A stretch of DNA of 64,000 nt from assembly GCA_964570325.1 (NCBI GenBank), contig CAZMXS010000001.1, positions 96,987 to 160,986 of the forward strand. The letters run 5' to 3'. Source of the stretch: an uncultured Verrucomicrobiota bacterium. Its GTDB lineage: Bacteria > Verrucomicrobiota > Kiritimatiellia > CAIQIC01 > CAZMXS01. Of the stretch, positions 19,299-39,635 are shown piece after piece. Position numbers and translations under genes: made by a program. The stretch's first letter is position 1. Each line of letters starts with the position of its first letter. The notes under the pieces are model-generated. The model saw only the letters and a program-made list of their open reading frames with translations, had not been told where the DNA came from and did no database searches.

Positions 19299-19364
19299 AG
19301 CACAGGTTCCGTTTCCAGTTTCAGGTTTCAACTTTCACCATGCCGCCTTCGCTTATCCTCTCGC

Positions 19365-23400: not shown

Positions 23401-26400
23401 ATCATCAACGGTGAATTGACCGCCCCGGCCTACCTGATCATCAACAGCAATTTTGTCAACAACGGCACATTCAACGCCGGCGCCGGCATCGTGCGCTTCG
23501 CCAGCAACACCGTCGTCAGCGGCGCCAGCACGAGCGTGTTCAACAACCTGCTGATCACCGGGCAATTCACGTCCCATAGCAACTGGCTCAGCATTGCCAA
23601 CAGTCTGACCAACAACGGCACGTTCAACGCCAATGGCGGGACGGTCGCGTTCACCGGCTGGACCATGCTCGGCGGCAACAGCACCTCGCAGTTCAACAAC
23701 GTGGTGATCAACGGCTGGCTGACGCCCGGCGCGACGCGACCGATAATGGTCGCGGGGGACTGGATCAACAACGGCAACTTCTACCACAACGACGGGTCCG
23801 TGATCTTCAACGGGGCCAGCGCCATCAGCGGCACGAACGTCACGGTCTTCAATAATTTCACCATCGCGGGCGCGGTCACCGCGCCCGCCGGCGAGATGCG
23901 CGTCGCCGGCAACTGGGTCAACAACGGAGCGTTCAACGCGAACGGCGGCATGGTCACGTTCAACGGCCAGACCACGATCAGCGGCGCCAGTTCCAACCAG
24001 TTCAACCACGTCACCCTGTGGGGCAACCTGACGGCCCCGACCGGAACGATCTATGTCGCGGGCAACTGGATCAACGACGGATCGTTCACCCATAATAATG
24101 GCACGGTCTTCTTCAACGGGACCAGCCTGATCGGCGGTGGCGTGGTCACAACGTTTAAAAACGTGATCATCGGCGCGGACGCCGCCGTGACCGGCCCCGC
24201 CTCCACCCTGAACGTCGCCGGCAACTGGAACGGCAGCGCCGGCTATTATTACAACAACGGCGGCCGCGTGATCCTGCCCGGCACGACCACACAATGGGTC
24301 TCCACCGGCGGCGCCTGGCTCAACGGCACCAACAACTGGAAGAACAACTGGGGCACCCTGATCGTATCCAACGGCTCCGCCGGCGGCGTCTATTTCACCG
24401 ACGGCTTCAAGGCGAACTACTTCATTGACACCGTGCCCGGCTCAACCCTCTATTTCCGAACGCAGGAGGAAGTCACCAACGTCTATGAGTTCGGCGCCGT
24501 CGGCGGGTTGACCTTGCAGGGTTCGTCATCCCAGCGGATCATCCTGCGCCGCTACGGCGGCTCCGGCACAAACCAGTGGGAATTGACGCCCACCGCCGCG
24601 AGCTTTAACTGGACAGTCAATTATGTGGACGTTCAGAACTCGGTCAACTCGGGATCCAGCGCCATTTACCCGACCAATTCGCTGGACTCCGGCAATACGG
24701 AGAATTGGTTCGTGCCCACGCTCGTCGAGTTCGGCTGGCTCTACGCCATCGGCCGCGACGGCGCGGTTACCGTGCGCTGGAAGACGGAGTCCGAGGTCAA
24801 CAACGCCGGCTTCAACGTGTACCGGGCGCCGGCCGCCGACGGGCCGTACGCGCGACTCAACCCGACGCTGATCCGCGGGCTGGGCAACTCGGTCATGGGC
24901 GGGGAATACAAGTTCGAGGACGGCGCAGCGACCAACGGCGCGACCTATTATTATCTGGTCGAAAGCGTCGAGTATGATGGCCGCGCGCAATTGTTCGGGC
25001 CGTCCGCGGCGCAGCCCGGACGCGACAGCGACGGCGACGGCATGACCGACGACTGGGAGGATTTCTACGGGCTGGACAAGGGGCTGGACGACGCGGGCGG
25101 CAACCCCGACGGCGACGGCTGGACCAACCTCCAGGAGTTCCAGCGCGACACCAACCCGTACCAGGATGAAGGCGAAACGGGCGCAGGCGGGGGCGGCGGC
25201 CCGCCGACCGCCGGCGGGGCGGACCTCTACAAGCTGACGGTTGACGCGGACGGCATCTACCGGCTCGACGCTGCGTACCTCTCGACCTATACCACCAACC
25301 TCGCCGCTTGGGTCGTCAGCAATATCCACATTTTCTGCCAGGGGGCGGCCATCCCACTGCTTTATCACGACGAGGACGACGCCGCCTTCGGCACTAATGA
25401 CTATGTTGAGTTTTTTGGCCGCGGCCTGAACACGCGCTTCTCCGGCGATAATATCTACTGGCTCTGCCCGTGGACCAATGCCGGCCCCATCATGCCCGCT
25501 GTCGGCAACGGCAGCGGAACCCTGCAAACGACCGCGCCGTTCACCGAACACTTCGAAGAAAACGCGTACTACGAACCGGAATTGCCGGACGAATATCCGG
25601 ATGACGACCACTGGTTCTTCTACGACAGCCTCTGGGTCATCGGCCCGGAAACCAATACGCTCGACTTCTTCCCGACGTTGTCCGGCGTCGCCGGCGGCAG
25701 TGCCACCGGGCTGTTGACGGTGGCCTTGCGCGGCCTGAACGAGGGGACCAATACCGTCCGAGTATGGCTGAATGGCGCGGCTTGCCCCGACGCGGTCTGG
25801 ACCGGTCTGCACCAGTATGCCTATGCGGCGCCGATCAGCCAGGCCGGCCTGCTCGAAGGCACAAACACGGTGACGCTTTCGCTGATCGGCGACGAGGAAA
25901 CATTCAGCCGCGATGTGCTGATCAACTGGTTTGAAATCGCCTACACGCGCGACCTCACGGCGGCAAACGGCGCCCTGCTCTTCACCAATCGGGCCGGCGG
26001 CGCGGCGGCCTGGCAGGTCGGCGGCTTCGCCGCCGCCGACGTACGGGTACTGCGCGTGGGCGACACCGGCGATGTCGCCGTCGCGGTGGTGACCAACGTC
26101 ACCGTCAGCGGCGCGGGCCCCTACGCGGCGGTTTTCGCCGACAACGCGCCGGCGGGCGCGGCTTATGCCTTGGCCGCCGCCAACGCCCTTCGCCGCCCGG
26201 CCGCCTGCGTTGCAGAAGAATCGTCGAACCTGCGCAGCGCAACCAACCAGGCCGACTACCTCATCATCGCCTACGAGCCGTTCCGCGAGACACTCGCCCC
26301 GTTGATTGCCGACCGTGCCGCGCGCGGCCTGAACGTCAAAGTCGTCGGCTTGACCGATGTGTACGACGATTTCAACTTCGGGATTCGGAGTCCGTACGCC

Positions 26401-28521
26401 ATCCGCGATTTCCTGGACTACGCCCGACAGTATTGGCGGAAACCGGCCCCCATGTACGTCCTGTTCGCCGGCGACACCTCCTATGATTACCGCGACTATG
26501 AGGACGTTGGCGCGGTTGATTACCTGCCCACGAAGATGATCCACGATGTCTTCGGCGAGGTTCCGTCCGACAACTGGTTTGTTTCGCTGGTCGCAACCAA
26601 CACCGGCTCGGAAGACATGTTTGTCGGGCGTTTCCCCGCGCGCTCCACCAACGACCTGGCGCGTATGATCCAGAAAACGCTCGATTATGAAGCCGCGGAT
26701 CCCGAGGCGCCCTGGGCGCGGCGCGCGGCGTTCGTGGCCGATAATGGGGATCCCGAATATGAGCGCATCTGCGCGGCCACGGCCGGCTGGCTGCCAACCC
26801 ACTACGTCGCCACCAACATCTGGGTCCGGACCTACGCGCAGCCCACCGACTGCCGGCCGGAGATCCTGGCCGCGTTCAACAGCGGCGCGCTGCTGATCGA
26901 GTACGCCGGACATGGCTCCTACAGCAAGTGGGCGCACGAGGGCATCTTCCGCAACGAGGACATTGCCGCCCTCACCAACGCCGCGACCACGCCGCTGGTC
27001 GTTACGCCCACCTGCATGAACGGTTACTTCGTCACCCCGGCTCACTACAACCGCGAGTGCATGGCCGAACAGCTCATACGAACGAACCGCGTCGGCGCCG
27101 CCGCCTGCCTCTCGCCATCCGGCTGGTCGGCGCCGCCTGAACAGCGCGTGCTGGCCGAGGGGCTCTTCCAGGCGATTTTCGCGGAGGGCGCCTTCGAAGC
27201 CGGCCCGGCGGTCGCGCGCGCGAAGCAGCTCCTGCTTGAACAGCACGGCACCAACGGCCTGATGGTGGCCAATACTTACGTTCTCTTCGGCGACCCGGCC
27301 CTGCGCCTGCGCCGGTGGTCCGGCTATGTGTACGACACGAACGCGCCGGCCGTCACCGCCGTCAACCCGACTAACGGCTCGATCGCCGCCGATCCGGCCG
27401 GCGCCATCCGCGTGACCTTCAGCAAGCCAATGAACGACATCGCCACGCGCACGGCATTTGCCCTCGATCCGCCAGCCGCCGGCGCGTTCCAGTGGGACGG
27501 GAACACCCTCGTGTTCCAACCGGAAGCGGCCCTGACGCCGTTCGTCACCTACACCGTCACGCTTCACGACACCGCCTGCGACCGCACCGGCCACCGGCTG
27601 GCGGCGGACTATACCTTCGCCTTCACGCCCACGCGCTGGACGGCCGCCGGCACAATCGCCTACGCCGGGTTGCAGTCCGGTTTGATCTACATCTTCGGCG
27701 TCGCAACGGAGGACGACTGGCGTCCCGGCGCCACGCCCGCCCTGATTTCACAGCCGGGCGCCTACACGCTTGACCGGCCGGGCAATACGCCGATGTGGCT
27801 GCGCGCGTTCCGCGACACCAACGGCAACGGCCTCCTGGACCCCATGGAGGCCCGCGGGGAATATATCGGGAATCCGGTGATGCTGACCCATGACTTGAAT
27901 GTGGACATTACCCTCGTGGACCCCGACGCGGACAGCGACGGCCTGCCCGACTGGGTCGAGGACAACGGCGGCATTTACTACGGCGCCACGCGCACCGGCA
28001 GCAACCCAAACAACGCCGACACCGATGGCGACGGCATCCCCGACGCCACCGAGGTAAATGTTTACAACAGCAATCCCGCCAATGCGGACACGGATAAGGA
28101 CGGGCTGGACGACAGCGCCGAGCTGCTGGCGGGCACCAACCTGCGCAACTGGGACACCGACGGCGATCTGGTCGGCGACTATCAGGAACTGTTTGTTTAC
28201 GGGACCGACCCCCTGAAAGCCGACACCGACGCCGACCACATCTGGGACGGCGACGAATTGATTGCCGGCACCAGCCCGACCAACGGTCTGGACTTCCTCC
28301 ACGTCACGCAATATGAAACGGCAGACGGCGCCGAATTCACTTTCACCTGGGAGACGCGGAGCAACCGCTGGTATGACCTCCAGGGCGCGCCGGACATCTT
28401 CGATTCCGCGACCTGGACCACACTCGAAACACGGCTGGGCGACGGCGCGACCGTTACCGCCACCAACACGCCGGCCCCCGATCTGCGCTTTTTCTGGATT
28501 AACGTGCGGCCGGCGGAGTAG
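20452..28521 (+). CDS. giant (2689 aa) secreted/cell-surface protein with PATR-like beta-strand repeats, Ca-binding TSP3-like repeats and a peptidase C25 (gingipain)-like domain
   Basis: Signal peptide. Dozens of ~35-40-aa repeats (GNWVNNGxFSNNxGTVxFNGNTTISG). D-x-D-x-D-G clusters. His and Cys dyad-like motifs EYAGHGSYSKW and VTPTCMNGYF at about 26.9-27.0 kb. Confidence 0.85.
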   Translation: MFQPWLPGGFVMRTMHFGSKRSRDGRQIISGMGLSILLIAGPAFGTGWISPNANNNPTRWDNETLARDSNVITYASCTPSKTGWGQALELYCDPIKCRRIRVNADYQPGVSSVRLEIRLYPSGTWQNIYEGSFSNQDWQIVTFNTTNISGARWTWNFTDTITFWLYELEFFEEGATITVPACETLDASSVEGTTVILHGNLTDDGGDLCQWRMQYGLTSSYSTNTEWVGNEVAPTHFSKLLVDLPTNTTYHFRAQVQNSAGIASGEDKEFTTGPPATGWISPSGSSNDTGNWEYRERAYDDNVATVARCRHPMGNPVWSPYIYLTHSIMICDGIEFYARRTAEFDMGEVGVLRNGAWTNVFSANFTNHVWTEAWFPKGTVTQARARFRLTSTSYGLDYELNEFKFHRLVDTIISGRFNGNTPVTLVINGVTNNTFTNFTTNVFSFAVSVGAGSKILIFYNDNNPATNNGAVVTLATGYNMTDLDLTDGELIVRNDYGSGLSNADLIQATTGDADIPYSYSGTSIIVSNAALNVPAGHTYAPGTNSLTLYSNLVYNGTLNNTSGTVTFAGNTRITGKADASFYNVTVAGTLYAPTGTMSVAGNWVNNGSFSNNSGTVNFNGNTTISGTRTSLFHNVTISGNLGAPAVMGVAGNWVNNGAFSNNLGQVIFNGNTTISGSSDTTFDDLTIAAGATLTGPSGTLTVNGNWNNAGGAYNHNNGTVVIGGTTASTNSGNTTFYNLACTTPGRAIYFTPGSTQTVAGTFTMAGDSTSQILLRSTVAGSKWKLDLPNTDQSVTYVNVRDSDALNHTVTVSGGTDSGNNNANWIFASSRYWVGGTGNWSDTNHWSLTSGGPGGASVPTTNQLAIFNSASGTGTATINVPANIKGLSILAGTTMTIAEGTNLFTVGTAGWEQKGGTYTGGSGTLTVNGTFLLTNGTFTAPSGLFSLSGNFTRRGGTYNPNGGTIAFDGSTLITQTVTNSFANVIINGELTAPAYLIINSNFVNNGTFNAGAGIVRFASNTVVSGASTSVFNNLLITGQFTSHSNWLSIANSLTNNGTFNANGGTVAFTGWTMLGGNSTSQFNNVVINGWLTPGATRPIMVAGDWINNGNFYHNDGSVIFNGASAISGTNVTVFNNFTIAGAVTAPAGEMRVAGNWVNNGAFNANGGMVTFNGQTTISGASSNQFNHVTLWGNLTAPTGTIYVAGNWINDGSFTHNNGTVFFNGTSLIGGGVVTTFKNVIIGADAAVTGPASTLNVAGNWNGSAGYYYNNGGRVILPGTTTQWVSTGGAWLNGTNNWKNNWGTLIVSNGSAGGVYFTDGFKANYFIDTVPGSTLYFRTQEEVTNVYEFGAVGGLTLQGSSSQRIILRRYGGSGTNQWELTPTAASFNWTVNYVDVQNSVNSGSSAIYPTNSLDSGNTENWFVPTLVEFGWLYAIGRDGAVTVRWKTESEVNNAGFNVYRAPAADGPYARLNPTLIRGLGNSVMGGEYKFEDGAATNGATYYYLVESVEYDGRAQLFGPSAAQPGRDSDGDGMTDDWEDFYGLDKGLDDAGGNPDGDGWTNLQEFQRDTNPYQDEGETGAGGGGGPPTAGGADLYKLTVDADGIYRLDAAYLSTYTTNLAAWVVSNIHIFCQGAAIPLLYHDEDDAAFGTNDYVEFFGRGLNTRFSGDNIYWLCPWTNAGPIMPAVGNGSGTLQTTAPFTEHFEENAYYEPELPDEYPDDDHWFFYDSLWVIGPETNTLDFFPTLSGVAGGSATGLLTVALRGLNEGTNTVRVWLNGAACPDAVWTGLHQYAYAAPISQAGLLEGTNTVTLSLIGDEETFSRDVLINWFEIAYTRDLTAANGALLFTNRAGGAAAWQVGGFAAADVRVLRVGDTGDVAVAVVTNVTVSGAGPYAAVFADNAPAGAAYALAAANALRRPAACVAEESSNLRSATNQADYLIIAYEPFRETLAPLIADRAARGLNVKVVGLTDVYDDFNFGIRSPYAIRDFLDYARQYWRKPAPMYVLFAGDTSYDYRDYEDVGAVDYLPTKMIHDVFGEVPSDNWFVSLVATNTGSEDMFVGRFPARSTNDLARMIQKTLDYEAADPEAPWARRAAFVADNGDPEYERICAATAGWLPTHYVATNIWVRTYAQPTDCRPEILAAFNSGALLIEYAGHGSYSKWAHEGIFRNEDIAALTNAATTPLVVTPTCMNGYFVTPAHYNRECMAEQLIRTNRVGAAACLSPSGWSAPPEQRVLAEGLFQAIFAEGAFEAGPAVARAKQLLLEQHGTNGLMVANTYVLFGDPALRLRRWSGYVYDTNAPAVTAVNPTNGSIAADPAGAIRVTFSKPMNDIATRTAFALDPPAAGAFQWDGNTLVFQPEAALTPFVTYTVTLHDTACDRTGHRLAADYTFAFTPTRWTAAGTIAYAGLQSGLIYIFGVATEDDWRPGATPALISQPGAYTLDRPGNTPMWLRAFRDTNGNGLLDPMEARGEYIGNPVMLTHDLNVDITLVDPDADSDGLPDWVEDNGGIYYGATRTGSNPNNADTDGDGIPDATEVNVYNSNPANADTDKDGLDDSAELLAGTNLRNWDTDGDLVGDYQELFVYGTDPLKADTDADHIWDGDELIAGTSPTNGLDFLHVTQYETADGAEFTFTWETRSNRWYDLQGAPDIFDSATWTTLETRLGDGATVTATNTPAPDLRFFWINVRPAE

Positions 28522-28531
28522 CGGGCAATCC

Positions 28532-29365
28532 ATGCCGGAGTCCGCATCCAAACCGATTCAGGAGCTGCCGACCCGGCTGGCCGGGTTCCCTTTCACGTTA
28601 CAATTTTATGATCCTGCGCTGAAATCACAGGCGGCCCGGCAGGTGCCCTTGGCGCGGCACGCCGGCGCGCGCGATTCAGTCACGCTGATGGTGCTTCCCC
28701 CAACGCGCGGCGCCGCGCGGGCACGGCGCCGGAGCATGACGGTTCGACTGGATGGCGTCGGAGGTTATTCCGGCGAGTTTGATCCGGTTACCCGCCGCGG
28801 TTGGATCCGCGTAGCGGAAGATCACCCGCTGGAGGCCCTCCTGAACGCCCTGCGCCGCATCGTGACCCTGCTCGTTTACCGGGAAGGCGGCGCCGTCATC
28901 CACGGCGCGGGTGTGCAGCGCGGGCGGCGGCTTTTCATCTTCTTCGGGCCCAGCGGCGCAGGCAAAACCACGGTCTGCGAGCTGTCGCCGGAAGCCAAGA
29001 TTCTCAACGACGATCTGATGGCTGTGCGCCGGGTGAACGGCCGAGCGCGGGTGTGGCCCATGCCCTGCCGCCGCCCGGCCCCGGCCCGACCGCCCGCGGG
29101 CGACGATGGCCGGGAGCCCGCGCTCCTGATTGAATTGCGGCAAGCCCGCAAGACCTACCTGCAACGCCTGCCGCCCGCGCTCGCGCTGGCGCGGGTGCTG
29201 GCCCTGCCGGCCGAACCGAGCAACCCGCAAGCGACGCTGGAGATTCTGGAGCGCCTGGTCCGCCAAACCCCCTGTTACCGGCTGTATTTTACCCGGACTC
29301 CGGATTTCTGGGGCCCGATCGAGTCCTTGTTGGCCAACCCACGGAGACAAGCCGATGTCCGGTGA
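28532..29365 (+). CDS. HPr kinase/phosphorylase-related P-loop kinase
   Basis: IHGAGVQRGRRLFIFFGPSGAGKTT...ILNDDLMAV resembles the HprK C-terminal domain (P-loop followed by an LVADD-like motif). Starts 10 nt after the giant gene stop. Confidence 0.65.
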   Translation: MPESASKPIQELPTRLAGFPFTLQFYDPALKSQAARQVPLARHAGARDSVTLMVLPPTRGAARARRRSMTVRLDGVGGYSGEFDPVTRRGWIRVAEDHPLEALLNALRRIVTLLVYREGGAVIHGAGVQRGRRLFIFFGPSGAGKTTVCELSPEAKILNDDLMAVRRVNGRARVWPMPCRRPAPARPPAGDDGREPALLIELRQARKTYLQRLPPALALARVLALPAEPSNPQATLEILERLVRQTPCYRLYFTRTPDFWGPIESLLANPRRQADVR

Positions 29366-29645
29366 GATTTTCCAGCGATCCCCGCGCGCCGTGCATCGGG
29401 TTGTTGACGGCGAGGCCGTCATTGTCGAACCGGCGATCGGCATGGTCACCATCTTGAACGATGTCGGCGCGCGAGTCTGGGAATCGCTGGACGGGCGGCA
29501 GTCCGCGGCAGAAATCGCCGCCGCCATCGCGGAGGAATACGCGGTGCCCCCCGCCGAGGCCGCGGCCGACGTGACCGCTTTTCTGGCGGAGTTGATGGAA
29601 AAGGGATTGATCAATCGGCATGACGACCGCGGTAATAAAAACTGA
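29355..29645 (+). CDS. PqqD-family protein (RiPP recognition element-like)
   Basis: VVDGEAVIVEP...ILNDVGARVWESLDGRQSAAEIAAAIAEEY follows the PqqD pattern. Overlaps the kinase gene by 11 nt. Confidence 0.7.
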   Translation: MSGEIFQRSPRAVHRVVDGEAVIVEPAIGMVTILNDVGARVWESLDGRQSAAEIAAAIAEEYAVPPAEAAADVTAFLAELMEKGLINRHDDRGNKN

Positions 29646-30663
29646 TGCGGATCCCTATCAGGCGATCCTGCGCAAAACCTTTGAACGGCGCATCCCGTTC
29701 ACGGCGCATTGGGAACTCACCTACCGCTGCAATTTCAAATGCCTGCATTGTTTTAACCGAAATCATCCGGCGGAAGGCGAACTGACCCAGACCGAAATCG
29801 AGCGGGTGCTCGATGAATTGGCCGCGGCCGGCACGCTCTACTTGACCTTCACCGGTGGCGAGATCCTGTTGCGTCCGGATTTTCTGCCCATACTGCGCGC
29901 GGCCCGCCGGCGCAATTTCGCGCTGCGCCTGCTGACCAATGGCGCGCTCCTCACCCCGACCCTCGCGGATGAAATCGCGGCGCTGGGCGTCGCCGGCGTG
30001 GACATCAGCCTGCACACACTCGATCCGAGAATCCATGACCATTTGACCGGCGCGCCCGGAACGCATCCGGCCGTCCTTGCGGCGATCGCGGCCTGCCGCG
30101 CGCGCGGCATTCCGCTTAACATCAAGTTCATCTTGACCCGCCACAATCAAGGGGAGTATGACCGGGTTGCGGAATACGCCGCCGCCTGCGGGGCGCGCGT
30201 GGTGATGGATTACGTCCTGGTGCCCGCCGACGACGGCGCACCGGTCATGGCGCGCCATGGGTTGAACGAAGCGGAAATTAGCGCCTTCATCGCCGCGCAC
30301 GCCGCCCGACCGCCCGTCGCCTTGAGTTTGCCGAACGGCAACGACCCCATCTGCGGCGCGGGCGCCAACGCATGCTGCATCAATCCATACGGCGAAGTGT
30401 TTCCCTGCCTGGCCCTGCGGCGCAGTGTCGGCAACCTGCGCAATCGGTCATTTATGAACATCTGGCATGGGCCCGCCCTTGACAGCATACGGAATACGAC
30501 CTATTCTAGTTTCGTCGAGTGCAACGGTTGCCGGGACGCCGTTTTTTGTATGCGGTGCCCTGGAGTGGCGTTGGCGGAAACCGGGCAGACCACCGGGCGG
30601 GCGCCGACAATCTGCCAGGCCGCCCGGGCCGCGCACGCAGCCGCCGAGCAAATACAGCAATGA
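29620..30663 (+). CDS. radical SAM / SPASM-domain peptide-maturase-like enzyme
   Basis: CNFKCLHC (CxxxCxxC). SPASM Cys clusters CGAGANACCINPYGEVFPC and CNGCRDAVFCMRCPG. Overlaps the PqqD gene by 26 nt. Confidence 0.85.
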   Translation: MTTAVIKTDADPYQAILRKTFERRIPFTAHWELTYRCNFKCLHCFNRNHPAEGELTQTEIERVLDELAAAGTLYLTFTGGEILLRPDFLPILRAARRRNFALRLLTNGALLTPTLADEIAALGVAGVDISLHTLDPRIHDHLTGAPGTHPAVLAAIAACRARGIPLNIKFILTRHNQGEYDRVAEYAAACGARVVMDYVLVPADDGAPVMARHGLNEAEISAFIAAHAARPPVALSLPNGNDPICGAGANACCINPYGEVFPCLALRRSVGNLRNRSFMNIWHGPALDSIRNTTYSSFVECNGCRDAVFCMRCPGVALAETGQTTGRAPTICQAARAAHAAAEQIQQ

Positions 30664-30824
30664 AAAACATGAACACCGGCAAAGAAAAGAAAAAGTACCG
30701 GAAACCCAGGATCATCTACCGGGAAAAGGCTGAAGTTTTGACCGCCGTCTGCGATTCCGCTTGGATGCCGGGCCGTTCCTGCATGCTGGTTGGCAATCCC
30801 AACTGCCAGAAGACGCGCTTCTAG
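30660..30824 (+). CDS. candidate RiPP precursor peptide (54 aa, Lys-rich leader, Cys-containing C-terminal core)
   Basis: ATG at 30660 overlaps the TGA of the rSAM gene (ATGA). Sequence: MKNMNTGKEKKKYRKPRIIYREKAEVLTAVCDSAWMPGRSCMLVGNPNCQKTRF. The ORF track has it only as the tail of a longer spurious ORF. Confidence 0.5.
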   Translation: MKNMNTGKEKKKYRKPRIIYREKAEVLTAVCDSAWMPGRSCMLVGNPNCQKTRF

Positions 30825-30844
30825 CCCGGCGCGCGGGCCGCGCC

Positions 30845-31972
30845 ATGGGGGCCATGAACGACCCGCCGTCAGTCTCCATCCAGGCATTCCAACTTTCCCT
30901 TCCTGGAAACGCCTGCTCCACAACTGCGTTCCCACCCGCGCTGATCCGCGCGGCTGAAGTCGAGGGCCTGGCGGAATTAATCGCGCATGAACGGCGCGAC
31001 ACGGCGCCCGACCGATTCAAGGAAATCTATACCGCGACGCTGGCGCGTAATGTCCTTTTCCTGGATATTCTCAAACAGATTCGCGGCCGGCTGGCCGGCA
31101 TGGAATATATCGCACTCAAAGGGGCGTATCTGGCAGAGCGCGTCTATCCCGACATCGGCCTGCGCCGGTTTTCCGATATTGACCTGCTGGTCCGCCCCCG
31201 CGACGTGCCCGAAGCCGTGCGCCGATTGAGCGCCTTGGATTATCAGCCCACCGATGGCGCGGCCGTAACCACAGCCCAGCCGCCCGTCTCCTATTTTCTC
31301 AACAGCATCCAATTGCGGGGACCGGCCCACACCCCGGCCGTCCATTTGCACTGGCACCTGTTCAATTCCATCCTGCCGCGACACCCATTCGCGCCTCCAG
31401 ACATCGCCCCGGTCTGGGCCGCCGCCACGCGCGATCCGGCCGGCCAACTGGAAATGTCAAGCGAGCACCTGCTGATCCATCTGGCCGATCATGCCCTGCG
31501 GCATTCCTACGCCCGCTTGAGCCTGCTACGCGACATCGCCGAGGTGTTCATCCGGCGCGCGGCGCAAATCAACCGGGAACGGCTGGCGGCAGCGGCGCGC
31601 GCGCTGCGGCTGGAACGCCCCCTGTATTTCAGCCTGGCCTGGCTGCATTATTTCGCGCCCGGTTTGTTCGACGCCCGTTGCCTGGATCAGGTGCGGCCCG
31701 CGCGCGCCGGCGCGGCCGAACGGCTGTTCCTGCGCCTGCTGCTGGCGGACCGACGGTCGGCGGAACTGTGCCTGCTGGCCTATTATGCGGAAGCCGATTC
31801 GCTGGCGGCCAAGGCCCGATTCGCGAGCCGGCTGCTTTTCCCGCCGCGCGCGGTAATGGGACAAGCCTTTGCGAAACCGGCGGACGATATTACGATCAGT
31901 GATTACGCGTGGCGGCTGGGACGCGGACTGCGGCATGTGGCGCTGGCGTGCCGGCGCGGAATCTGGAAGTGA
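30845..31972 (+). CDS. nucleotidyltransferase-like protein (NTP_transf_5-like)
   Basis: IALKGAYLAERVYPDIGLRRFSDIDLLV motif. Start is uncertain (30761, 30845 or 30854). Confidence 0.55.
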   Translation: MGAMNDPPSVSIQAFQLSLPGNACSTTAFPPALIRAAEVEGLAELIAHERRDTAPDRFKEIYTATLARNVLFLDILKQIRGRLAGMEYIALKGAYLAERVYPDIGLRRFSDIDLLVRPRDVPEAVRRLSALDYQPTDGAAVTTAQPPVSYFLNSIQLRGPAHTPAVHLHWHLFNSILPRHPFAPPDIAPVWAAATRDPAGQLEMSSEHLLIHLADHALRHSYARLSLLRDIAEVFIRRAAQINRERLAAAARALRLERPLYFSLAWLHYFAPGLFDARCLDQVRPARAGAAERLFLRLLLADRRSAELCLLAYYAEADSLAAKARFASRLLFPPRAVMGQAFAKPADDITISDYAWRLGRGLRHVALACRRGIWK

Positions 31973-32076
31973 ATGATTGAAAACCAGTCCGGATTTCATT
32001 TACTCATTCTCCCCTCCGCGGGGTGTCGAGGACAAAGAAGAGTCGAAGGACGAACAAGTGAAAGAGTGAGAGCGGT

Positions 32077-32988
32077 ATGATTAACACTCCACCACCCCTT
32101 CGCTTGCGCATGAATAACCTGCGCCCGCCGCCGCGCGCCGTGCCGCTGGGCGTAGCGCTGACCAATCTGTTCGGCGGTTTCGAGAACTTTATGGGGTGGT
32201 TCTTTTTCGGCTTCGGGATGATCTTCGCCTGGTTCGCCGGATATCGGGCCGATTACTCGTTCATCACCTTCACCGGCGCCAAGGGTCTGGCGGACGGACG
32301 GGTCGTCGCCATTCGCGAGACCAATGCCTCAGTCGGCGGCGGCAAGCACTCGCAGGGCACGCCCGTCTATGAATACCGCTTTACCTACACCGTGAACGGC
32401 GCGGAGTTCGAAGGTCTTTCATACCGAACCGGAACATCATTTGGAGAAGGTGATCGCGTCCAGGTCGAATACCTGCTCCGCGATCCCAGCCGCGCCCGAA
32501 TCGAGGGTATGCGCCGAAATTACTTCGATCCCTGGATTCTCTTTGTGTTGATTTTCCCGGCTGTCGGCATCGGCTTCATCCAAGCCGGATTCCGCCGGGG
32601 ACTCCGGGCCAACCGCCTGCTGGCCTGGGGACGAATCACCCACGGCCGCTTTGTCTCCATGGAAGCGACTGGCGGGAAGATTAACAACCAGGTCATTTAC
32701 AAATTATTCTTCGACTTCACCGCGGCCGACGGCCGCCGCCACACCGCCATCGCCCGGACACACCTCGTCGAACGCCTACAGGACGAGGAACAGGAACCGT
32801 TGCTCTATGACCCGCGCGCGCCGGAGCGCGCGGTGCTGGTGGATGAACTGCCCGGCGCGCCGGGAATTGACGCCCGCGGCCAACTGGTCACCGCCAGCTA
32901 CTGGAACTTACTCAAAGCGCTGGCGCTCCCGGCAGCCACCCTGTTCGGCCACGGGCTCACAGCGGCCTGCCTCTGGCTACCGCGCTAA
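32077..32988 (+). CDS. membrane protein with two DUF3592-like repeats
   Basis: Two TM helices each followed by a similar beta-rich segment. Confidence 0.45.
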   Translation: MINTPPPLRLRMNNLRPPPRAVPLGVALTNLFGGFENFMGWFFFGFGMIFAWFAGYRADYSFITFTGAKGLADGRVVAIRETNASVGGGKHSQGTPVYEYRFTYTVNGAEFEGLSYRTGTSFGEGDRVQVEYLLRDPSRARIEGMRRNYFDPWILFVLIFPAVGIGFIQAGFRRGLRANRLLAWGRITHGRFVSMEATGGKINNQVIYKLFFDFTAADGRRHTAIARTHLVERLQDEEQEPLLYDPRAPERAVLVDELPGAPGIDARGQLVTASYWNLLKALALPAATLFGHGLTAACLWLPR

Positions 32989-33026
32989 CCCATACGGCGA
33001 ACAATGGTAACGCGCCACATCCGGCC

Positions 33027-33884
33027 TTACTTGCTTTTTTCCGTCGGCTCTTTCTTGTCACCGCCCAACCCCAGCAGGCCGCCGACGCCCTTGATCACTT
33101 CGCCCGCGCCATCGCCCACCGCGCTTGCCGCCGAGCCAGCCGCATCCGCCGCTGCGCCGGCGGCACTTGCCGCGCCGCTGCCGACAGCCGCCGCGCCCTT
33201 GCCCAGCAGCTTGAGGGCGCCAGTCGCCACATCCGTCACGCTGCCGGCAATCGCGCCGAAAATCCGGGTCGCGACTTCGAGCGGCGTCGCGCCCTGCTTG
33301 CCCTCCTCGCGGCCAATGCCGGTTAAATGAATGGCGGGCAGCGGGATCGGCGCGGCGGCGCCCATGGCCGCGGTCGTGCTCAATTTCACCTTGCCGTTCT
33401 CGATCAGGAAATCGTCAATCACCACTTTCTTCCCCTCCCCCTTGGCGGCGGCGGGTTTGTCCGCTGGCGCCTTTGCCTCCGCCTGCTGCTCTTTGCCGGC
33501 CATCTGTTTCATGATCCGGCCGATGTTGCTTTCCCCAAGCCCAACCTCGTAGGTGATTTCCGGCGCATTGACATACACCCGGCTGATCTCGATCGTATCG
33601 CTCAATAACGATCGCATCGCCAGATCCACCGTGATTTCACCGACGCGGATGGCGTTGTCTGTCTTGTAGCCCTCCGGATTCCCCAGCTCAAAACCCTTGA
33701 GTTGCACATACCCGCGCAGGAGACGGAACTGAACCTTTTCCAATTTGATCGGCACCCCAACCAGCGCCGATCCGCCCTTCTCCACAGTCAGTTTCACGAT
33801 CGAGCCAAGGTAAATACTCAGAATGACCACCAAGACCACCAACAGGATCAGCAGACCGCCCCCGATCCGCAGCAACCATTTCAT
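33027..33884 (-). CDS. membrane-anchored protein of unknown function with Ala/Gly-rich tail
   Basis: N-terminal TM helix (LLILLVVLVVILSIYL) and a low-complexity Ala/Gly/Lys C-terminus. Confidence 0.5.
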   Translation of the reverse strand: MKWLLRIGGGLLILLVVLVVILSIYLGSIVKLTVEKGGSALVGVPIKLEKVQFRLLRGYVQLKGFELGNPEGYKTDNAIRVGEITVDLAMRSLLSDTIEISRVYVNAPEITYEVGLGESNIGRIMKQMAGKEQQAEAKAPADKPAAAKGEGKKVVIDDFLIENGKVKLSTTAAMGAAAPIPLPAIHLTGIGREEGKQGATPLEVATRIFGAIAGSVTDVATGALKLLGKGAAAVGSGAASAAGAAADAAGSAASAVGDGAGEVIKGVGGLLGLGGDKKEPTEKSK

Positions 33885-33901
33885 TTATGCCTCCTTGGTA
33901 T

Positions 33902-34732
33902 TCACGCTGCTTTCTCCGCCACGGCCTTGAAAAACGTGTAGCAAAACGTGCCGTCGGCCGCGGCGGCGCGATATAAACCGCGGATGCCGCGATCCCAGGC
34001 CGCCGCGTCCACCAAACCCTGCGCAAGCGCGGGCTCGCGCACGCCTTCCACCATGGCGGTGAAAGTCAGCCTGGTGAACCCTTCCACCCATTCCGGCCGG
34101 CTGGCATCCACATAGACCATGCGCGGGGATACCGCCACGTTCCGAAAACCACCCGCAACGAGCAGCGGATAAAGCTGGCGCCCAATCAGCGCGTTGCCGC
34201 CGGCCCGCGCCTGTAATTCAATCAGGCACTGGATCGCGCGCCGGGCGTCCGCATCGTCGGGATAAAAATAGGCCGAACCATGGTCGCCCTCAATCACCGT
34301 GATCGTCCCGCCCGGCTTCAACACCCTTTTCAACGCCGCCAGCGCCCGCGCCGGTTCGGCCAGGTGTTCCAGCACAAAGCAGACAAATACATGATCGAAC
34401 GCCGCGGCCGGATACGTCAGGTTGAAGATGTCACCCTGCTGAAACTCGACATTCGTGAAGCCGCGCTCCGCAACCTTGCGACGCGCCTCGGCCAGCGAAA
34501 CTTCCGAAATATCCACGGAGACAATGGCGCAGCCCGGATTGTTCCGTGCCAGGTGGACCGTCTGCGCCCCCACGCCGCAACCCGCCTCGAGAATCCGGCT
34601 ACCGGCGGGGAAGATTGAGTCATGATGCAGCAACCGGGCCAGCGTGTTGGCCTGATCCGCCAGCCGCTCTGCCTCCCGCTCCGAATAGCCATGAACGTAG
34701 TCGTGCATCTGCGACGCGCGGACGTTAATCAT
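33902..34732 (-). CDS. class I SAM-dependent methyltransferase
   Basis: ILEAGCGVGAQT (motif I) and LKPGGTITVIE. Start reassigned to MINVRAS. The 530-aa ORF in the track is a chimera with the antisense of the ABC permease gene. Confidence 0.8.
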   Translation of the reverse strand: MINVRASQMHDYVHGYSEREAERLADQANTLARLLHHDSIFPAGSRILEAGCGVGAQTVHLARNNPGCAIVSVDISEVSLAEARRKVAERGFTNVEFQQGDIFNLTYPAAAFDHVFVCFVLEHLAEPARALAALKRVLKPGGTITVIEGDHGSAYFYPDDADARRAIQCLIELQARAGGNALIGRQLYPLLVAGGFRNVAVSPRMVYVDASRPEWVEGFTRLTFTAMVEGVREPALAQGLVDAAAWDRGIRGLYRAAAADGTFCYTFFKAVAEKAA

Positions 34733-34785
34733 TGCGCGGCGCGATTGCAAACCAACTTTGCCGCGGCGCATTGGAGCAACGACGC

Positions 34786-35598
34786 TTAATAGTGCCCCAG
34801 ACTGCCGCTTCGCCGCGCGCGCCGCAGCGCGCGCGCCAACACCAGCGTGGCCACCGGCGCCAACACAACCGCAAACACCGCCAACCCGAGCACATCGCGC
34901 GCATACGCCGCACCGCTCCAACCCGCGATCAAAGCGGCGCGGAAGGCATCGGTGGCATAGGGCAGTGGCAGCAGTCGCGCCAGCCATTGCAGCGGCGCCG
35001 GCATGACATCCAGCGGAAACAAGACGCCGCCGAGCAGTAAAAACAGGCTGCTCAACAGCCAGTTCACCGGGTCGCCGCGCTTGAACACCAGGATGAAGGA
35101 AGCCGAGATGATCCCCAGGCTGAAAAAAACCACCGTCGCCAGGCACCACGGCAGCAGCAGCGCCAGCCAGCGCGCGGCAGTCAACCGCGCCCCAAGGAGC
35201 CAGCCGCCCACCACAAAGAAACCACCCAATTGCAGCAGCGCGAGCGCGAAGTCGAACGCGCACCAGCCGCACAGCAGGGTCGGCAGCGAGGTCGGCGTAA
35301 GGCACAATGCCTCCAGACAACCGGAGGTCTGCTCCTGACGCAGGCGGGCGGGCAGCATGCCCAAGCAGGTCGTCAGATAGGAATAGAACGCCAGACCGAC
35401 CAGCGCATAGGTAAAATAGTCTGCGCCCCACCCCGCCGGCGCCGCCGGCCGGCCGCGCGCGATAAACCGTCCCAGGAAAAAGAGCAGGAGGCAATAGAAC
35501 ACCAGCGTGGCGATCTGCAACGCGATCGCCAGCCGGTAGCTGCGCTCAATCCGATAGTCCCGCAGGCAGAAGGCGGCCACTTTGCGCCAGGCAATCAT
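34786..35598 (-). CDS. ABC-2 type transporter permease
   Basis: Six TM helices with an ABC-2 pattern. ATGA overlap with the downstream ATPase gene. Confidence 0.75.
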   Translation of the reverse strand: MIAWRKVAAFCLRDYRIERSYRLAIALQIATLVFYCLLLFFLGRFIARGRPAAPAGWGADYFTYALVGLAFYSYLTTCLGMLPARLRQEQTSGCLEALCLTPTSLPTLLCGWCAFDFALALLQLGGFFVVGGWLLGARLTAARWLALLLPWCLATVVFFSLGIISASFILVFKRGDPVNWLLSSLFLLLGGVLFPLDVMPAPLQWLARLLPLPYATDAFRAALIAGWSGAAYARDVLGLAVFAVVLAPVATLVLARALRRARRSGSLGHY

Positions 35599-36257
35599 CC
35601 ATCCGCCTCCAGCCGGCCGGCGCGGATCGTCCAGCGCCGCGCGGGCGCCAAGGGCAATTCTCCCGGCGTATGTGTCGCCATAAGGACCGCCAGACCGCGC
35701 TCACGGTTCAAGCGGCCGACGAGTTCAAAAGCCAGGCGCCGGGCCGCGGAGTCCAGGCTCCGCTCCGGCTCGTCAAGCAACAGCACCTGCGGCTGGTGCA
35801 ATACGGCGCGCAACAGGCCGAACCGGCGCTGCACGCCGGTCGAACATTGCGCGAACGGGATGTCCAACCACTCCATCAAACCCAGCGCGTCGCTCAGCTC
35901 ACCTATCCGTTCCGCCAACGCCGCGCGGGGAATATCGAAGAGCGCTCCAAAGAATTCCAGGTTCGCACGGCCGGTCAGCCGCCAGTAAAAACCGCGACTA
36001 TCCTCCGCGAACAAGCCCAGTTGCCGCCGTGCCGCCAGCGCCTCCCGCGCGGCGTCCCGTCCGACCACGCGCACGGTGCCGGCATCCGGCGCGTACAGGC
36101 CGGCCGCCAGCTTCATCAATGTGGTTTTCCCGCTGCCGTTGGCCCCCAGGAGCAACGCCCGTTCGGCCGGCGCCAAGGTCATGGAGACGTGGTCCAAAAC
36201 CCGGATCGGCGGCCGGAACGACTTGGAAACATCGGCCAATTCAAGCGCGGGAGTCAT
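35595..36257 (-). CDS. ABC transporter ATP-binding protein
   Basis: Walker A GANGSGKTT, Q-loop, signature CSTGVQRR and Walker B LLLDEP. Confidence 0.85.
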   Translation of the reverse strand: MTPALELADVSKSFRPPIRVLDHVSMTLAPAERALLLGANGSGKTTLMKLAAGLYAPDAGTVRVVGRDAAREALAARRQLGLFAEDSRGFYWRLTGRANLEFFGALFDIPRAALAERIGELSDALGLMEWLDIPFAQCSTGVQRRFGLLRAVLHQPQVLLLDEPERSLDSAARRLAFELVGRLNRERGLAVLMATHTPGELPLAPARRWTIRAGRLEADG

Positions 36258-36403
36258 GGGCGAAAAGGATCAAGCAGCAGGCTGATTGCCAATTGGAATA
36301 CCGAGAGACGGGAAAGCATCCGGGAGTGTCTGTGATGGGTGGAAAGGCACTGTGGCATAGGCGGGCAACCCCAATTCGGATTTCCAATTTCAAGTTCCAG
36401 GTT

Positions 36404-37567
36404 TCATCCTTCCTTTTTCCCGGCCGCGATGCGCTTTTCGCCCAAGACTTCCAACAGGGCCACCACAAGGTAAATGCAGATGGCGGAGACGATCAAGGCA
36501 ACGCCGCCATAGGTGCGCGCCTCCAGCAGGGTAACCGACCCCAGCCCCACCGCCATGTTCAGGAAGCAGATCGTGACCACTACCTGGCCGCGCGTGAGTC
36601 CCAGACCTTCCAGCCGATGGTGCAGGTGGTCGCGGCCGACATACTCCAGCCAGCTCCGCACCGAGTTCACATCACCACGCCGAATCCGGGCGACGGTGAT
36701 AAAGATCATGTCGTAAATCGGCACGGACAGGATCAGCACCGGAATGAAAAAAGAAACCAGCGGATCGCTCTTCGACCACTCCCCCATAATGCTCAGCGTG
36801 GCGATGAAAAAACCAATCAGGTTGCTGCCGCTGTCACCCAGGAAAATACGCGCGGGCTTGATGTTGAAGCCGAGGAAGCCCACCGCCGCGCCAACCAGCG
36901 CGATGGCGCAGTAAGCCATCATCACTTCGCCCAGCAGGATCGAAAGAATATAGAAAATCAGACCCGTGCCGATCGCCAGGCCGGTGACCAGACCATCCAT
37001 GCCGTCAAGAAAGTTGATCGCATTGGTGATACCGACGATCCAAATTACCGTAATGATCCACTCGCCGGCCATGCCCCACCAGGTGTCCGGCAGGAAGGTC
37101 ACGTGCAGGCCATCCGCGATCAGGATGGCGCAGGCGGCAAGTTGACAGAATAACTTGACGGCCGCATTTACGCTCATCAGATCGTCAAGGAGGCCGACAT
37201 ACATGATAATGGAACTGGCGATGAGCATCGCCTTCAGATTCGGCATATAGTGCATGCTGGTGACCAGCAGGGCCGTAACCACGCCGGCCCAGAGCGCCAC
37301 GCCGCCCCAGCGGGGCGTGGGGTGCACATGAATGCGTCGGCCGCCGGGCATATCCACCGCCCCCAGTCGGACCGCGAGCCGGATCACGGGCGGCGTCAGC
37401 AGAGCGGCGACATAAACGGCCACCAGTTGGATAATAGCCAGCCGTTGGATAATGGCGTCGGTACCGCCCAACCAGGCAAGCAGGAAAAGCCCCAAGCTGA
37501 ACGCCAGCGCCGCGGCGGTGAACAATCGGCCGCCCTTCAAGATTGCAAGGGGTGGACTTGAATTCAT
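36404..37567 (-). CDS. polyprenyl-phosphate sugar-1-phosphate transferase (WecA/MraY family)
   Basis: NAINFLDGMDGL and GDSGSN motifs with 10-11 TM helices. Start taken at MNSSPPL. Confidence 0.8.
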   Translation of the reverse strand: MNSSPPLAILKGGRLFTAAALAFSLGLFLLAWLGGTDAIIQRLAIIQLVAVYVAALLTPPVIRLAVRLGAVDMPGGRRIHVHPTPRWGGVALWAGVVTALLVTSMHYMPNLKAMLIASSIIMYVGLLDDLMSVNAAVKLFCQLAACAILIADGLHVTFLPDTWWGMAGEWIITVIWIVGITNAINFLDGMDGLVTGLAIGTGLIFYILSILLGEVMMAYCAIALVGAAVGFLGFNIKPARIFLGDSGSNLIGFFIATLSIMGEWSKSDPLVSFFIPVLILSVPIYDMIFITVARIRRGDVNSVRSWLEYVGRDHLHHRLEGLGLTRGQVVVTICFLNMAVGLGSVTLLEARTYGGVALIVSAICIYLVVALLEVLGEKRIAAGKKEG

Positions 37568-37717
37568 CGGTTTGGTTCTTTTTACCAGAAAACAATGAAG
37601 CGAATAAAGACCCATTCCGGCCATGCAGTCGTTATCCTTCGTCGCGTCATGCGCCTGATTCAGCTTGCTGGACGGCTCCGCGGGAATGCATGGCCTAACC
37701 ATTGGGGCTGCGTTTTT

Positions 37718-38752
37718 TCACTTCATAATATCCGGCAACGTGTTGCAGATTTGCGCCACCTCCGCATCGCTCAATCCAGGATAGAGCGGGACGGAAACCA
37801 GCCGGTCCTCCAACGCCGTTGTGCGGGGGCAGGCGCCGCCCAGGGCGCGGTGCAGGCCGCGCCAAACCGGCCGGCGACAGGCAATGCCGGCGGCCTGCGC
37901 GCGAGCCAGGCGCGTCTCAACATCGCCGGGCGTAAGCACCAGGTAGCGGAAGCAGACCCCTTGGGGCCGCGGCGAATGCGCGCGGAATGCCAACGATCCG
38001 AATGCCTGGTCATAGATACCGGCCAGACGCCGACGCTCGGCAACCGTCTCGGCCAGGCGCGCCAGGCGCGCGCGCACCAGCGCGGCGCTGATATCCGTCA
38101 TCTTCAAATTGAAGGCGCGCGGGTCCGGTTCCTGCTCATCACACTGGCGCAACCGTCGCACGGTTGCCTGCCAATCCGGCCGGTCGGTAACGCACGCGCC
38201 ACCCTCCCCGCCTGGCAACAGTTTGGTGCCATAGAAAGATAATACGGTAACCGCACCCTTGGAACCGAGCGGACTGCCGTCCGGATAGCGGCCGCCAATC
38301 GCCTGGGCACAATCCTCAATCACCGGCACGCCCACCCCGCGCAGATCCTCAATATCAGCCGTGAAACCGCAGGTGTGCGGCGCAATCACCGCATCGGTCT
38401 CGGCATCCACGAGCGGCGCGACGGTCCGGCGCGAGATGAGCACCGTTTCTTCCTCAACATCCGCGCACACCGGCGTCGCGCCGGCGTGGATGACGGCAGC
38501 GTACAGGCTGTTGCAGGTATAGGCGGGAATAATCACCTTGTGGCCGGGTCGCACCCCGATCGCGCGCAGCCCCAGACAAAGCGCCGCTGTGCCGGACGCT
38601 ACCCCCACGGCCTGCGCGGGCTTGAAGAGGTCGGAAAGTTCCTGCTCCAACGCAAAAACCTCCTCGCCCTGGGAAAGCCGGCCGCGCCGCAGGGCCGTCA
38701 CAACGGCTTCGATTTCCGCTTCGGCGGGTTGCGGTCTGGAGTGGGGAATCAT
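37718..38752 (-). CDS. DegT/DnrJ/EryC1/StrS family PLP-dependent aminotransferase
   Basis: Family-typical sequence, including the conserved Lys region (SFYGTK). Confidence 0.85.
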   Translation of the reverse strand: MIPHSRPQPAEAEIEAVVTALRRGRLSQGEEVFALEQELSDLFKPAQAVGVASGTAALCLGLRAIGVRPGHKVIIPAYTCNSLYAAVIHAGATPVCADVEEETVLISRRTVAPLVDAETDAVIAPHTCGFTADIEDLRGVGVPVIEDCAQAIGGRYPDGSPLGSKGAVTVLSFYGTKLLPGGEGGACVTDRPDWQATVRRLRQCDEQEPDPRAFNLKMTDISAALVRARLARLAETVAERRRLAGIYDQAFGSLAFRAHSPRPQGVCFRYLVLTPGDVETRLARAQAAGIACRRPVWRGLHRALGGACPRTTALEDRLVSVPLYPGLSDAEVAQICNTLPDIMK

Positions 38753-38840
38753 GGGAAGCCGCGATGGCCAATGACCAATGGCCATTGGCCCTCGGTTATT
38801 TGTGATCGGGAATTAAAATGGAGCCAAGCGCCGGGCATGT

Positions 38841-39458: not shown

Positions 39459-39635
39459 TGTCGTTCCTCCCGGCCGAAATGGGATTGGGTAAAAAACCAC
39501 ACACGGAGGAGCCGCCCCCGCAAGCTAAACTGAATTAACCCCATCGCAGTTTTCCACCACCGCTAACGGATCGCCACTCACGTACTGCTTACCGATTACG
39601 AATGACTAATCACCGACCACCCATTCGCGGCCCAC

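Follow-up and report, generated by a model that had tools for sequence, protein, structure and literature searches.

A short gene behind a radical SAM/SPASM gene of a Kiritimatiellia bacterium is the probable precursor gene of a RiPP pathway related to phosphopeptide biosynthesis

The subject of this study is a short open reading frame (ORF) at positions 30660..30824 of the forward strand in a 64-kb stretch of DNA, here called the window (64,000 nucleotides of contig CAZMXS010000001.1), from an uncultured Verrucomicrobiota bacterium of the class Kiritimatiellia. The ORF is very probably the gene of a precursor (A) peptide of a peptide that is synthesized by ribosomes and then modified post-translationally (RiPP). 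Its pathway depends on a discrete RiPP recognition element (RRE) and is encoded in one packed string together with a ScmC-like, HprK-related kinase-like protein, a PqqD-family protein, a radical S-adenosylmethionine (rSAM) enzyme with a SPASM domain, and a nucleotidyltransferase-like protein of the NTP_transf_5 family. Judged from the sequences, the peptide is most likely the substrate of all four of these proteins. The original prediction had described the ORF as a candidate precursor with a thioether or crosslink core. The precursor part of that reading is supported, but it missed the larger pathway with its kinase-like protein and nucleotidyltransferase, which appears as a relative of systems that make phosphopeptides.

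The ORF consists of 54 codons and a TAG stop at 30822-30824, and its translation is MKNMNTGKEKKKYRKPRIIYREKAEVLTAVCDSAWMPGRSCMLVGNPNCQKTRF. The ATG at 30660 shares the four letters ATGA with the TGA stop codon of the rSAM/SPASM gene (29620..30663, forward strand). The three cysteines are residues 31, 41 and 49 (C-x9-C-x7-C), and ten of the 30 N-terminal residues are Lys or Arg. In these respects, the position and length of the ORF, the coupling overlap, the cysteines and the basic N-terminus, the original prediction had described the sequence accurately. It was also correct that the mechanical ORF list contains only a longer frame, 30519..30824 (GTG start, 101 aa), of which the 54-aa ORF is the in-frame tail. 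Its guess that gene callers would probably miss the ORF is contradicted, as 11 public contigs (JGI, NCBI and Logan) already list exactly the 54-aa product as a called gene, under the name “hypothetical protein”. Inspection of the peptide sequence revealed no signal peptide and no hydrophobic segment. A Sec-secreted small protein was considered and rejected, since the N-terminus is strongly charged and lacks such a segment. A sigma-70-like promoter match (TTGACA, 17 nt, TATTCT, 10/12) lies at 30479..30507 on the forward strand, inside the 3'-terminal part of the rSAM gene, with the ATG some 150 nt further downstream, and could drive a separate precursor transcript; such matches rest on the consensus only, with six sites found in the region and 2.9 expected.

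The length of the ORF alone has no significance in the G+C-rich DNA of the window, where the region 24000..38000 is overlapped by 111 ORFs with 40 aa or more. What lifts it above chance are in-frame homologues found by tblastn, family members in 114 of 160 related loci, the pattern of substitutions, and the codon composition. A protein search with the peptide alone returned identical copies only, and the relatives surfaced when tblastn and jackhmmer were applied to loci that had been fetched via the rSAM enzyme, namely 80 loci each from species genomes and from metagenomes, plus 10 that surround the closest homologues (37-51% identity). With tblastn, homologues of the peptide were detected in frame and directly 3' of the rSAM homologues in L009 (Kiritimatiellia, E=1e-10), L011 (4e-8) and L010 (2e-5); the similar short ORFs behind homologous rSAM/SPASM genes, for which a search had been proposed, are thus present next to the closest homologues. 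In the window clade, which has seven members, the position of the peptide ORF relative to the rSAM stop varies from a 44-nt overlap to a 107-nt gap. The ATGA overlap recurs in L174 and in L169/L170, and loci in which the homologue has no overlap (L175, L009, L171) show Shine-Dalgarno-like sequences. The seven peptides align without gaps from a Y-x-K-P motif to the C-terminal end, and all of them keep the pattern C-[DNT]-S-x-W-x5-C-x3-G-x3-C-x-K-T-[RK]-[FLT], and with it the C-x9-C-x7-C spacing, the conservation of which had been suggested as a further check.

Among the closest loci, the proportion of nonsynonymous differences (pN) is 0.22-0.38, as opposed to a saturated proportion of synonymous differences (pS) of 0.57-1.0. 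The G+C content at third codon positions (GC3) of the ORF is 0.75, with 0.75-0.78 in the neighbouring genes, and the values at its first and second codon positions (GC1, GC2) are 0.40 and 0.42. Eight near-identical copies (L001-L008) show zero substitutions in the ORF and are therefore uninformative on selection. Because homologues follow the rSAM gene, because pN is lower than pS, and because GC3 is like that of the neighbours, the ORF is a protein-coding gene under purifying selection.

The gene belongs to a large family that is linked to the same enzymes. In six-frame translations, jackhmmer detected a family member in 114 of the 160 loci with ScmC-like, PqqD and rSAM genes, and many of the remaining loci end before the side that would be expected to hold the gene. 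Most loci were chosen through the rSAM gene, and sampling from the side of the peptide comprises three loci: two of these carry the peptide, an S24-like peptidase, ScmC, PqqD and rSAM/SPASM in a row, and the third carries an orphan copy. A profile of 49 members matched 6,847 clusters (90% identity) at E<=1e-3 among 5.8 billion proteins; the matches listed from these are 52-80 aa long, all named ones among them are called “hypothetical protein”, and none of them has a Pfam domain. An exhaustive HMMER search over 1.84 billion representatives at 50% identity gave 745 matches at E<=1e-3 and 290 at E<=1e-10. When the window peptide and six relatives were compared with NCBIfam and Pfam, no family was found at E<=10 beyond noise, and both databases lack a model for the family. 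The fetched loci are mostly from Acidobacteriota, and others come from Kiritimatiellia, Omnitrophota, Chloroflexota (Anaerolineae, Dehalococcoidales) and further lineages.

The main clade, mostly of Acidobacteriota (Terriglobia), has the consensus KKPYxKPxFRxExVFETxALxCGK...C...S, the invariant letters of which are Y, P, E, T, A, L, C and K; the second Cys is present in 86%, and the stretches between are variable. Of 115 peptides of the family, 110 have a C-terminal Ser and 101 contain exactly two cysteines; Cys are the only core positions that are conserved family-wide, and besides them no core feature is as conserved as the C-terminus. Except for two variable stretches, the predicted Acidobacterial core is nearly as conserved as the leader, with A-L-x-C-G-K, the second Cys and a terminal [KR]-x-S; A15, L16, C18 and K20 are invariant, G19 is kept in 94%, and the C-terminal Ser in 82 of 83 peptides. 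Conservation of this degree is not what is usually seen in RiPPs of the antibiotic type and may point to a physiological role that is conserved. Several loci hold two precursor copies (L154 at 1506..1670 and 1731..1931, as well as L033, L089 and L156), and the orphan in the peptide-selected locus L180 (7001..7177) lies far from any rSAM gene and near an integrase gene of the rve family; extra and orphan copies of this kind are typical of RiPP precursor genes. Directly upstream of the Acidobacterial precursor gene there is a protein of about 560-680 aa without a Pfam domain (L071 2051..4096, L179 5045..6958, L181 5331..7004), which has tblastn relatives in 52 of 173 loci and could be another conserved component of the system.

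The link between the peptide and its enzymes is seen most directly in the leader. The window peptide carries the motif Y13-R-K-P16-R-I18 (30696..30713, forward strand), which has the form [Y/W]xxPx[L/V/I/F/A], and Y13 and P16 are invariant across the family (alignments A2, A3 and A5). The definition of the [Y/W]xxPx motif and the mutagenesis of its Tyr and Pro are taken from the study of linear polyphosphorylated peptides (LPP; Popov et al., Nat Commun 2026, PMC13381572). The predicted partner is the PqqD-family protein of 96 aa encoded at 29355..29645 (forward strand; Pfam PqqD 7.6e-21), a discrete RRE whose best matches in the PDB are TbiB1, LppB (9x8z, second-best), PbaB1 (9x90) and TfuB1, all of which were crystallised with [Y/W]xxP leaders. 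In BLASTP comparisons it matched an Acidobacterial “other RRE” at 4.5e-16, LppB at 1e-12 and a paeninodin-type B1 protein at 9e-7. When the contact residues of LppB named in PMC13381572 were mapped onto the alignment of the two proteins, 9 of 13 were identical: T30, L32, N33, V35, I56, Y60, D70, F74 and L83 of LppB correspond to T32, L34, N35, V37, I58, Y62, D72, F76 and L85 of the window protein. Among the contacts that are kept are the Asp that forms a hydrogen bond to the Tyr of the leader and three residues, Asn, Val and Phe, by which the Pro is held. It is because the 54-aa peptide carries the motif bound by this class of RRE, and because the pocket residues are conserved, that we regard it as a substrate.

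The boundary between leader and core can be predicted by alignment to the LPP site “FET|” and the invariant ..ET of the Acidobacterial clade, which would place the leader at M1-V26 (30660..30737) and, by the alignment of the window clade, the core at L27-F54 (30738..30821). Core residues conserved in the clade are C31 (30750-52), S33, W35, C41 (30780-82), G45, C49 (30804-06), K51 and T52 (30813-15).

The rSAM/SPASM enzyme (347 aa, Pfam Radical_SAM and SPASM) is presumed to modify this core. Its cluster motif C37-x3-C41-x2-C44 and the SPASM cysteines C245, C263, C301, C304, C310 and C313 are invariant in alignment A1. Its nearest structurally solved relatives are SkfB (1e-31), PqqE (3e-24) and CteB (4e-21), followed by SuiB and anSME, all of which modify peptides; it stays below every NCBIfam cut-off, for example with 143 bits against 500 for NirJ2 and 129 (2.8e-37) against 265 for MftC. 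The ScmC-like protein (277 aa, 28532..29365, forward strand) is assigned at the level of the family as an HprK-related, kinase-like P-loop protein: among eight aligned members, the ScmC model matches all eight (best 1.2e-11), HprK_rel_A all eight (4.5e-6) and HprK_rel_B seven (9.4e-8), each below its cut-off. A profile of this family searched against PDB sequences gave P-loop/PEPCK matches only, with no HprK chain among them, and most members match the P-loop region of PEPCK. H124, K145 and D160 are invariant in the alignment, consistent with the His-Lys-Asp-Asp motif of lasso-tailoring HprK-like kinases; a single-sequence AlphaFold model was discarded (predicted local distance difference test score, pLDDT, 35; predicted template modelling score, pTM, 0.22). 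Only 20 nt separate the stop of the peptide gene from the gene of the NTP_transf_5 protein (375 aa, 30845..31972, forward strand; PF14907, 6.1e-37), and the whole string of ScmC-like, PqqD, rSAM/SPASM, peptide and NTP_transf_5 genes is overlapping or near-abutting on the forward strand.

From these assignments we infer both the chemistry and the biological role. The PqqD protein would bind the leader via Y13-x-x-P16-x-I18 and hand the peptide to the enzymes, as suggested by residues that are conserved on both partners. The rSAM/SPASM enzyme would then modify the Cys-bearing core at C31, C41 and C49, most likely by thioether formation or other radical crosslinks; the thioether or crosslink core of the original prediction would thus fit the conserved cysteines and the relationship of the enzyme to SkfB and CteB. 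By analogy to LPP and pseudomycoidin, the HprK-related protein may phosphorylate a conserved hydroxyl group, which would be the C-terminal Ser in 96% of the family, and for which the conserved T52 or S33 are candidate acceptors in the window clade. The same analogy suggests that the NTP_transf_5 protein could further decorate the phosphate. Finally, an SpI-like (signal peptidase I-like) peptidase would remove the leader behind ...E-[T/V] in the relatives, again by analogy, and the gene for it is missing from the window.

The closest known counterpart is the LPP system of Bacillota (lppA-K-B-S-D-N). LPP clusters lie in capsular polysaccharide loci and encode an SpI-like peptidase (TIGR02228), a discrete PqqD RRE, a kinase resembling HprK, an NTP_transf_5 protein and an MsbA-like pump, and their precursors carry the motif YxxPxVLxHQxIxFETxxS. 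In a heterologous host, the LPP kinase polyphosphorylates Ser3 of the core and the peptidase cuts after T-1, and the NTP transferase was inactive. LPP are described as restricted to Bacillota, and the main text and the supplementary text searched do not mention a radical SAM enzyme (PMC13381572). The present system resembles LPP in several components. There is a KK-x-Y-x-x-P-x-hydrophobic leader at the N-terminus, followed by ...FET in most of the present family; a discrete PqqD RRE of the lasso/LPP type; and an NTP_transf_5 protein of the same Pfam family that the LPP study counts as “putative NTP transferase”. The ScmC-like protein, as the putative counterpart of the kinase, matches HprK-related models below their cut-offs, and weakly when the window protein is taken alone. 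The system also stands inside a polysaccharide biosynthesis locus, and the window's relatives have a signal peptidase I of archaeal type (TIGR02228). This small S24/S26-type peptidase is found in 121 of 173 related loci, and its best-matching model is TIGR02228, with 56 bits at a cut-off of 51.85. The peptidases of related loci match the SpI proteins of cluster 3 (see below) and LppS at 1e-12 to 1e-17 (LppS 1e-12 to 1e-16), with about 1e-6 for the housekeeping SipW. In L171, L172, L174 and L175, NTP_transf_5 bears the signal-peptidase domain as an N-terminal fusion (513-557 aa), and in L178 and L071 the domain is separate. The window protein has no peptidase domain, and its alignment to the fusions of L171, L172 and L174 starts at their residues 165-209. 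Cluster 3 of the sequence similarity network in Supplementary Data 1 of the LPP study holds SpI homologues of Acidobacteriota, Chloroflexota, Myxococcota and candidate phyla with unanalysed “other RREs” (PMC13381572), and the window PqqD protein is nearer to such an “other RRE” than to LppB.

The differences from LPP are nevertheless substantial. An rSAM/SPASM enzyme, of which the texts of the LPP study named above make no mention for LPP clusters, is part of the window system, and its presence argues that the product may not be simply linear. In the present family, Y and ET are separated by a spacer that is shorter by two residues. The window peptide reads ...AEV|LTAV, with no conserved Ser at +3, and does not satisfy the full LPP consensus, and FET is retained in the Acidobacterial clade, with A-L at +2/+3. 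In place of the S3 of LPP, it is the C-terminal Ser that is conserved in the family, with K-T-R-x in the window clade. As the gene set matches that of LPP, which has been reported in Bacillota only and with no rSAM enzyme mentioned, the present system appears, by its gene content, to be a sister of LPP outside the Bacillota with an acquired or retained rSAM/SPASM enzyme. A literature search on RiPP families that combine rSAM, HprK and SpI proteins yielded nothing beyond the LPP paper.

Several observations weigh against this picture. The homologue search over the whole 64 kb found no signal-peptidase-like gene and no MsbA-type exporter, both of which LPP clusters possess; in the MsbA search an ABC-2 type pair at 34786..36257 (reverse strand) matched through its ATPase domain only, and an MsbA-like gene is near the system in 28 of 173 related loci. 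The ScmC-like protein of the window alone matches its models weakly, at 0.001 and 0.023, the latter for HprK-related models. The window peptide ends in Phe, as opposed to the C-terminal Ser of the family, and the co-occurrence seen from the peptide side rests on the three loci mentioned above. When hidden Markov models of LPP precursors and of the present family were scored against each other's peptides, they gave 4-11 bits, and the best of 2,600 shuffled sequences reached 8.1 bits. Since these cross-scores are barely above those of shuffled sequences, we claim a shared motif and gene set only, and not homology of the peptides. Lastly, some LPP precursors of Bacillota that have no rSAM enzyme carry two cysteines, e.g. 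...FETKPSKPHPCDNGGHTGSPNCK, and therefore the cysteines of the window peptide could merely form a disulfide and the rSAM enzyme could target another residue.

This last point leads to the alternative that has to be taken most seriously, according to which the peptide is a precursor, but its cysteines form a disulfide or bind a metal and the rSAM enzyme catalyses a different reaction, for instance an epimerisation, a C-C or C-O crosslink or an MftC-like modification of the C-terminus. Besides the cysteine pairs in rSAM-less LPP precursors, it could draw on the presence of MftC and PqqE, which do not form thioethers, among the best NCBIfam matches of the enzyme, on PqqE, SuiB and anSME among its nearest solved relatives, and on the prominent conservation of the C-terminus within the core. 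As the nearest solved relative is the thioether-forming SkfB, with CteB in third place, and as the cysteines are the sole core positions conserved throughout the family, we lean away from this alternative while regarding it as a real prospect. We think it unlikely that the system in the window is a decaying or rewired remnant that has lost the ancestral maturation through deletion of the peptidase domain and loss of the usual Ser acceptor. It would account for the lack of any SpI/S24-like sequence in 64 kb, for an NTP_transf_5 protein of 375 aa where the four fusions have 513-557 aa, and for the terminal Phe in a family that otherwise ends in Ser (110/115). However, all five genes are intact, with catalytic motifs kept and tight overlaps, and the peptide is under purifying selection. 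The K-T-[RK]-[FLT] end occurs in all seven clade members, including those that have a peptidase, and is thus a feature of the clade and no lesion; moreover, a peptidase could be encoded beyond the window.

That the small protein might instead be a conserved accessory subunit, i.e. a regulator, scaffold or immunity factor, and not a substrate, gains some appeal from an Acidobacterial core that is so well conserved for a RiPP (A15, L16, C18 and K20, with G19 and the terminal Ser close behind). We nonetheless hold this to be quite improbable, as the protein carries exactly the leader motif of this RRE class opposite conserved pocket residues, has neither signal peptide nor hydrophobic segment, occurs in extra and orphan copies as precursor genes typically do, and has an LPP counterpart that is a demonstrated substrate (PMC13381572). 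One could also imagine that the frame is open by chance where the rSAM gene ends and is never translated, because random ORFs abound in G+C-rich DNA and because no obvious Shine-Dalgarno sequence precedes the ATG at 30660. The comparative data refute this reading for practical purposes: there are thousands of homologues, pN is much smaller than pS, GC3 bears a coding signature, and the ATGA coupling is conserved, with Shine-Dalgarno-like sequences in the three non-overlapping loci.

Other known systems share parts of this gene set. The HprK-like kinases PadeK, ThcoK and PsmK phosphorylate the C-terminal Ser of lasso precursors, and PsmN adds a hexose to the phosphate. With paeninodin and pseudomycoidin the present system shares the YxxPx-hydrophobic leader and a discrete PqqD-like B1 protein, a putative HprK-like kinase, whose counterpart there targets the C-terminal Ser that is so prevalent in the present family as well, and a nucleotidyltransferase-like enzyme, which there places the hexose onto the phosphate. 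It differs from the lasso systems in that an Asn-synthase-type cyclase is absent from the window and is near only 4 of 173 related loci, in that the window core offers no Asp or Glu at a position suited to macrolactam formation, and in that it has an rSAM enzyme instead. The genes that were characterised around the locus do not include a B2 leader peptidase of the lasso type, although no systematic search was aimed at B2. A lasso peptide was rejected on account of the missing cyclase and of the core LTAVCDSAW..., which has Leu at position 1 and Asp at position 6, where an Asp or Glu at 7-9 would be needed.

The combination of a ScmC-type P-loop protein, a PqqD-like protein and an rSAM/SPASM enzyme is also found in the SynChlorMet (SCM) cassette (ScmC, ScmD, ScmE/ScmF; TIGR04248-04251), for which, to our knowledge, no precursor has been assigned so far. 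ScmC and ScmD are the top-scoring NCBIfam models for the two window proteins, and the Pfam model of ScmC (PF27840) matches relatives. However, the scores are 18.5 against a cut-off of 125 for ScmC, 41 against 100 for ScmD, 88 against 400 for ScmE and 67 against 400 for ScmF, and the window has one rSAM gene and not two. Membership in SynChlorMet was rejected for these reasons, with all four models far below their cut-offs. A literature search on “ScmC” returned unrelated acronyms only. Sactipeptide and ranthipeptide systems (SkfB/SkfA, CteB/CteA, AlbA/SboA) resemble the present one in an rSAM enzyme with a SPASM or twitch auxiliary-cluster domain, in RRE-mediated leader recognition, in a Cys-containing core and in an adjacent short precursor, and SkfB is the nearest solved enzyme. 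In contrast to these, the RRE of the window is a separate protein and not fused to the N-terminus of the rSAM enzyme, the enzyme stands outside every curated maturase family, the precursor matches no precursor model, and a kinase-like protein and an NTP_transf_5 protein are present in addition.

Upstream of the string, a secreted-type protein of 2689 aa is encoded at 20452..28521 (forward strand) with the Pfam domains Peptidase_C25 (9e-75) and Big_5 (2.3e-15), and its gene ends 11 nt before that of the ScmC-like protein. A C25-domain protein adjoins the system in 10 related loci (L011, L040, L043, L090, L169-L171, L175, L177, L178), which belong to Omnitrophota, Anaerolineae, Blastocatellia and unassigned metagenome contigs with the rSAM enzymes closest to that of the window; the main Acidobacterial clade lacks this adjacency. 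That the neighbour recurs suggests a functional link, and the giant protein is a candidate partner with putative membership in the system. Downstream of NTP_transf_5, a DUF3592 membrane protein (32077..32988) was seen only in copies from the own organism. Genes of exopolysaccharide type flank the string on both sides (14712..20165, reverse strand, and 33027..41727). They encode Poly_export/SLBB, AAA_31 chain-length-type, HD_5, AAA_22 ATPase, AsmA/DUF748 and methyltransferase proteins, as well as an ABC-2 transporter, Glycos_transf_4, Glycos_transf_2, DegT and PIG-L; the surroundings as a whole form a locus for the biosynthesis and export of polysaccharide.

That a short ORF beside rSAM and PqqD genes encodes a RiPP precursor is the expected reading, which follows standard logic and holds here. 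What is surprising is the scale of the family, with at least 6,847 clusters at 90% identity and 745 at 50%, that it is unannotated, and the composition of its enzymes, which joins radical-SAM/SPASM modification with the HprK-kinase/NTP_transf_5/SpI toolkit of LPP and paeninodin, so far described separately. The link to polysaccharide loci and to giant C25 proteins likewise goes beyond the usual pattern. If this is true, pathways of the LPP type would extend to Gram-negative phyla, a new class of rSAM-RiPPs with a clear recognition motif would be available for genome mining, and candidate substrates would come into reach for relatives of the long-orphan ScmC/ScmD/ScmE-type cassettes. As a tentative and rather speculative suggestion, the product of the family could be a conserved physiological molecule and not of the antibiotic type, namely a peptide with crosslinks, phosphate and sugar or nucleotide decorations that serves, for example, as primer, anchor or signal in the assembly of the envelope or of exopolysaccharide, and that in the window clade would be coupled to the C25 giant. 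Such a role would fit the conserved anchors of the Acidobacterial core, the polysaccharide loci in which both LPP clusters and the window system are found, and the C25 giants that accompany the system across four phyla.

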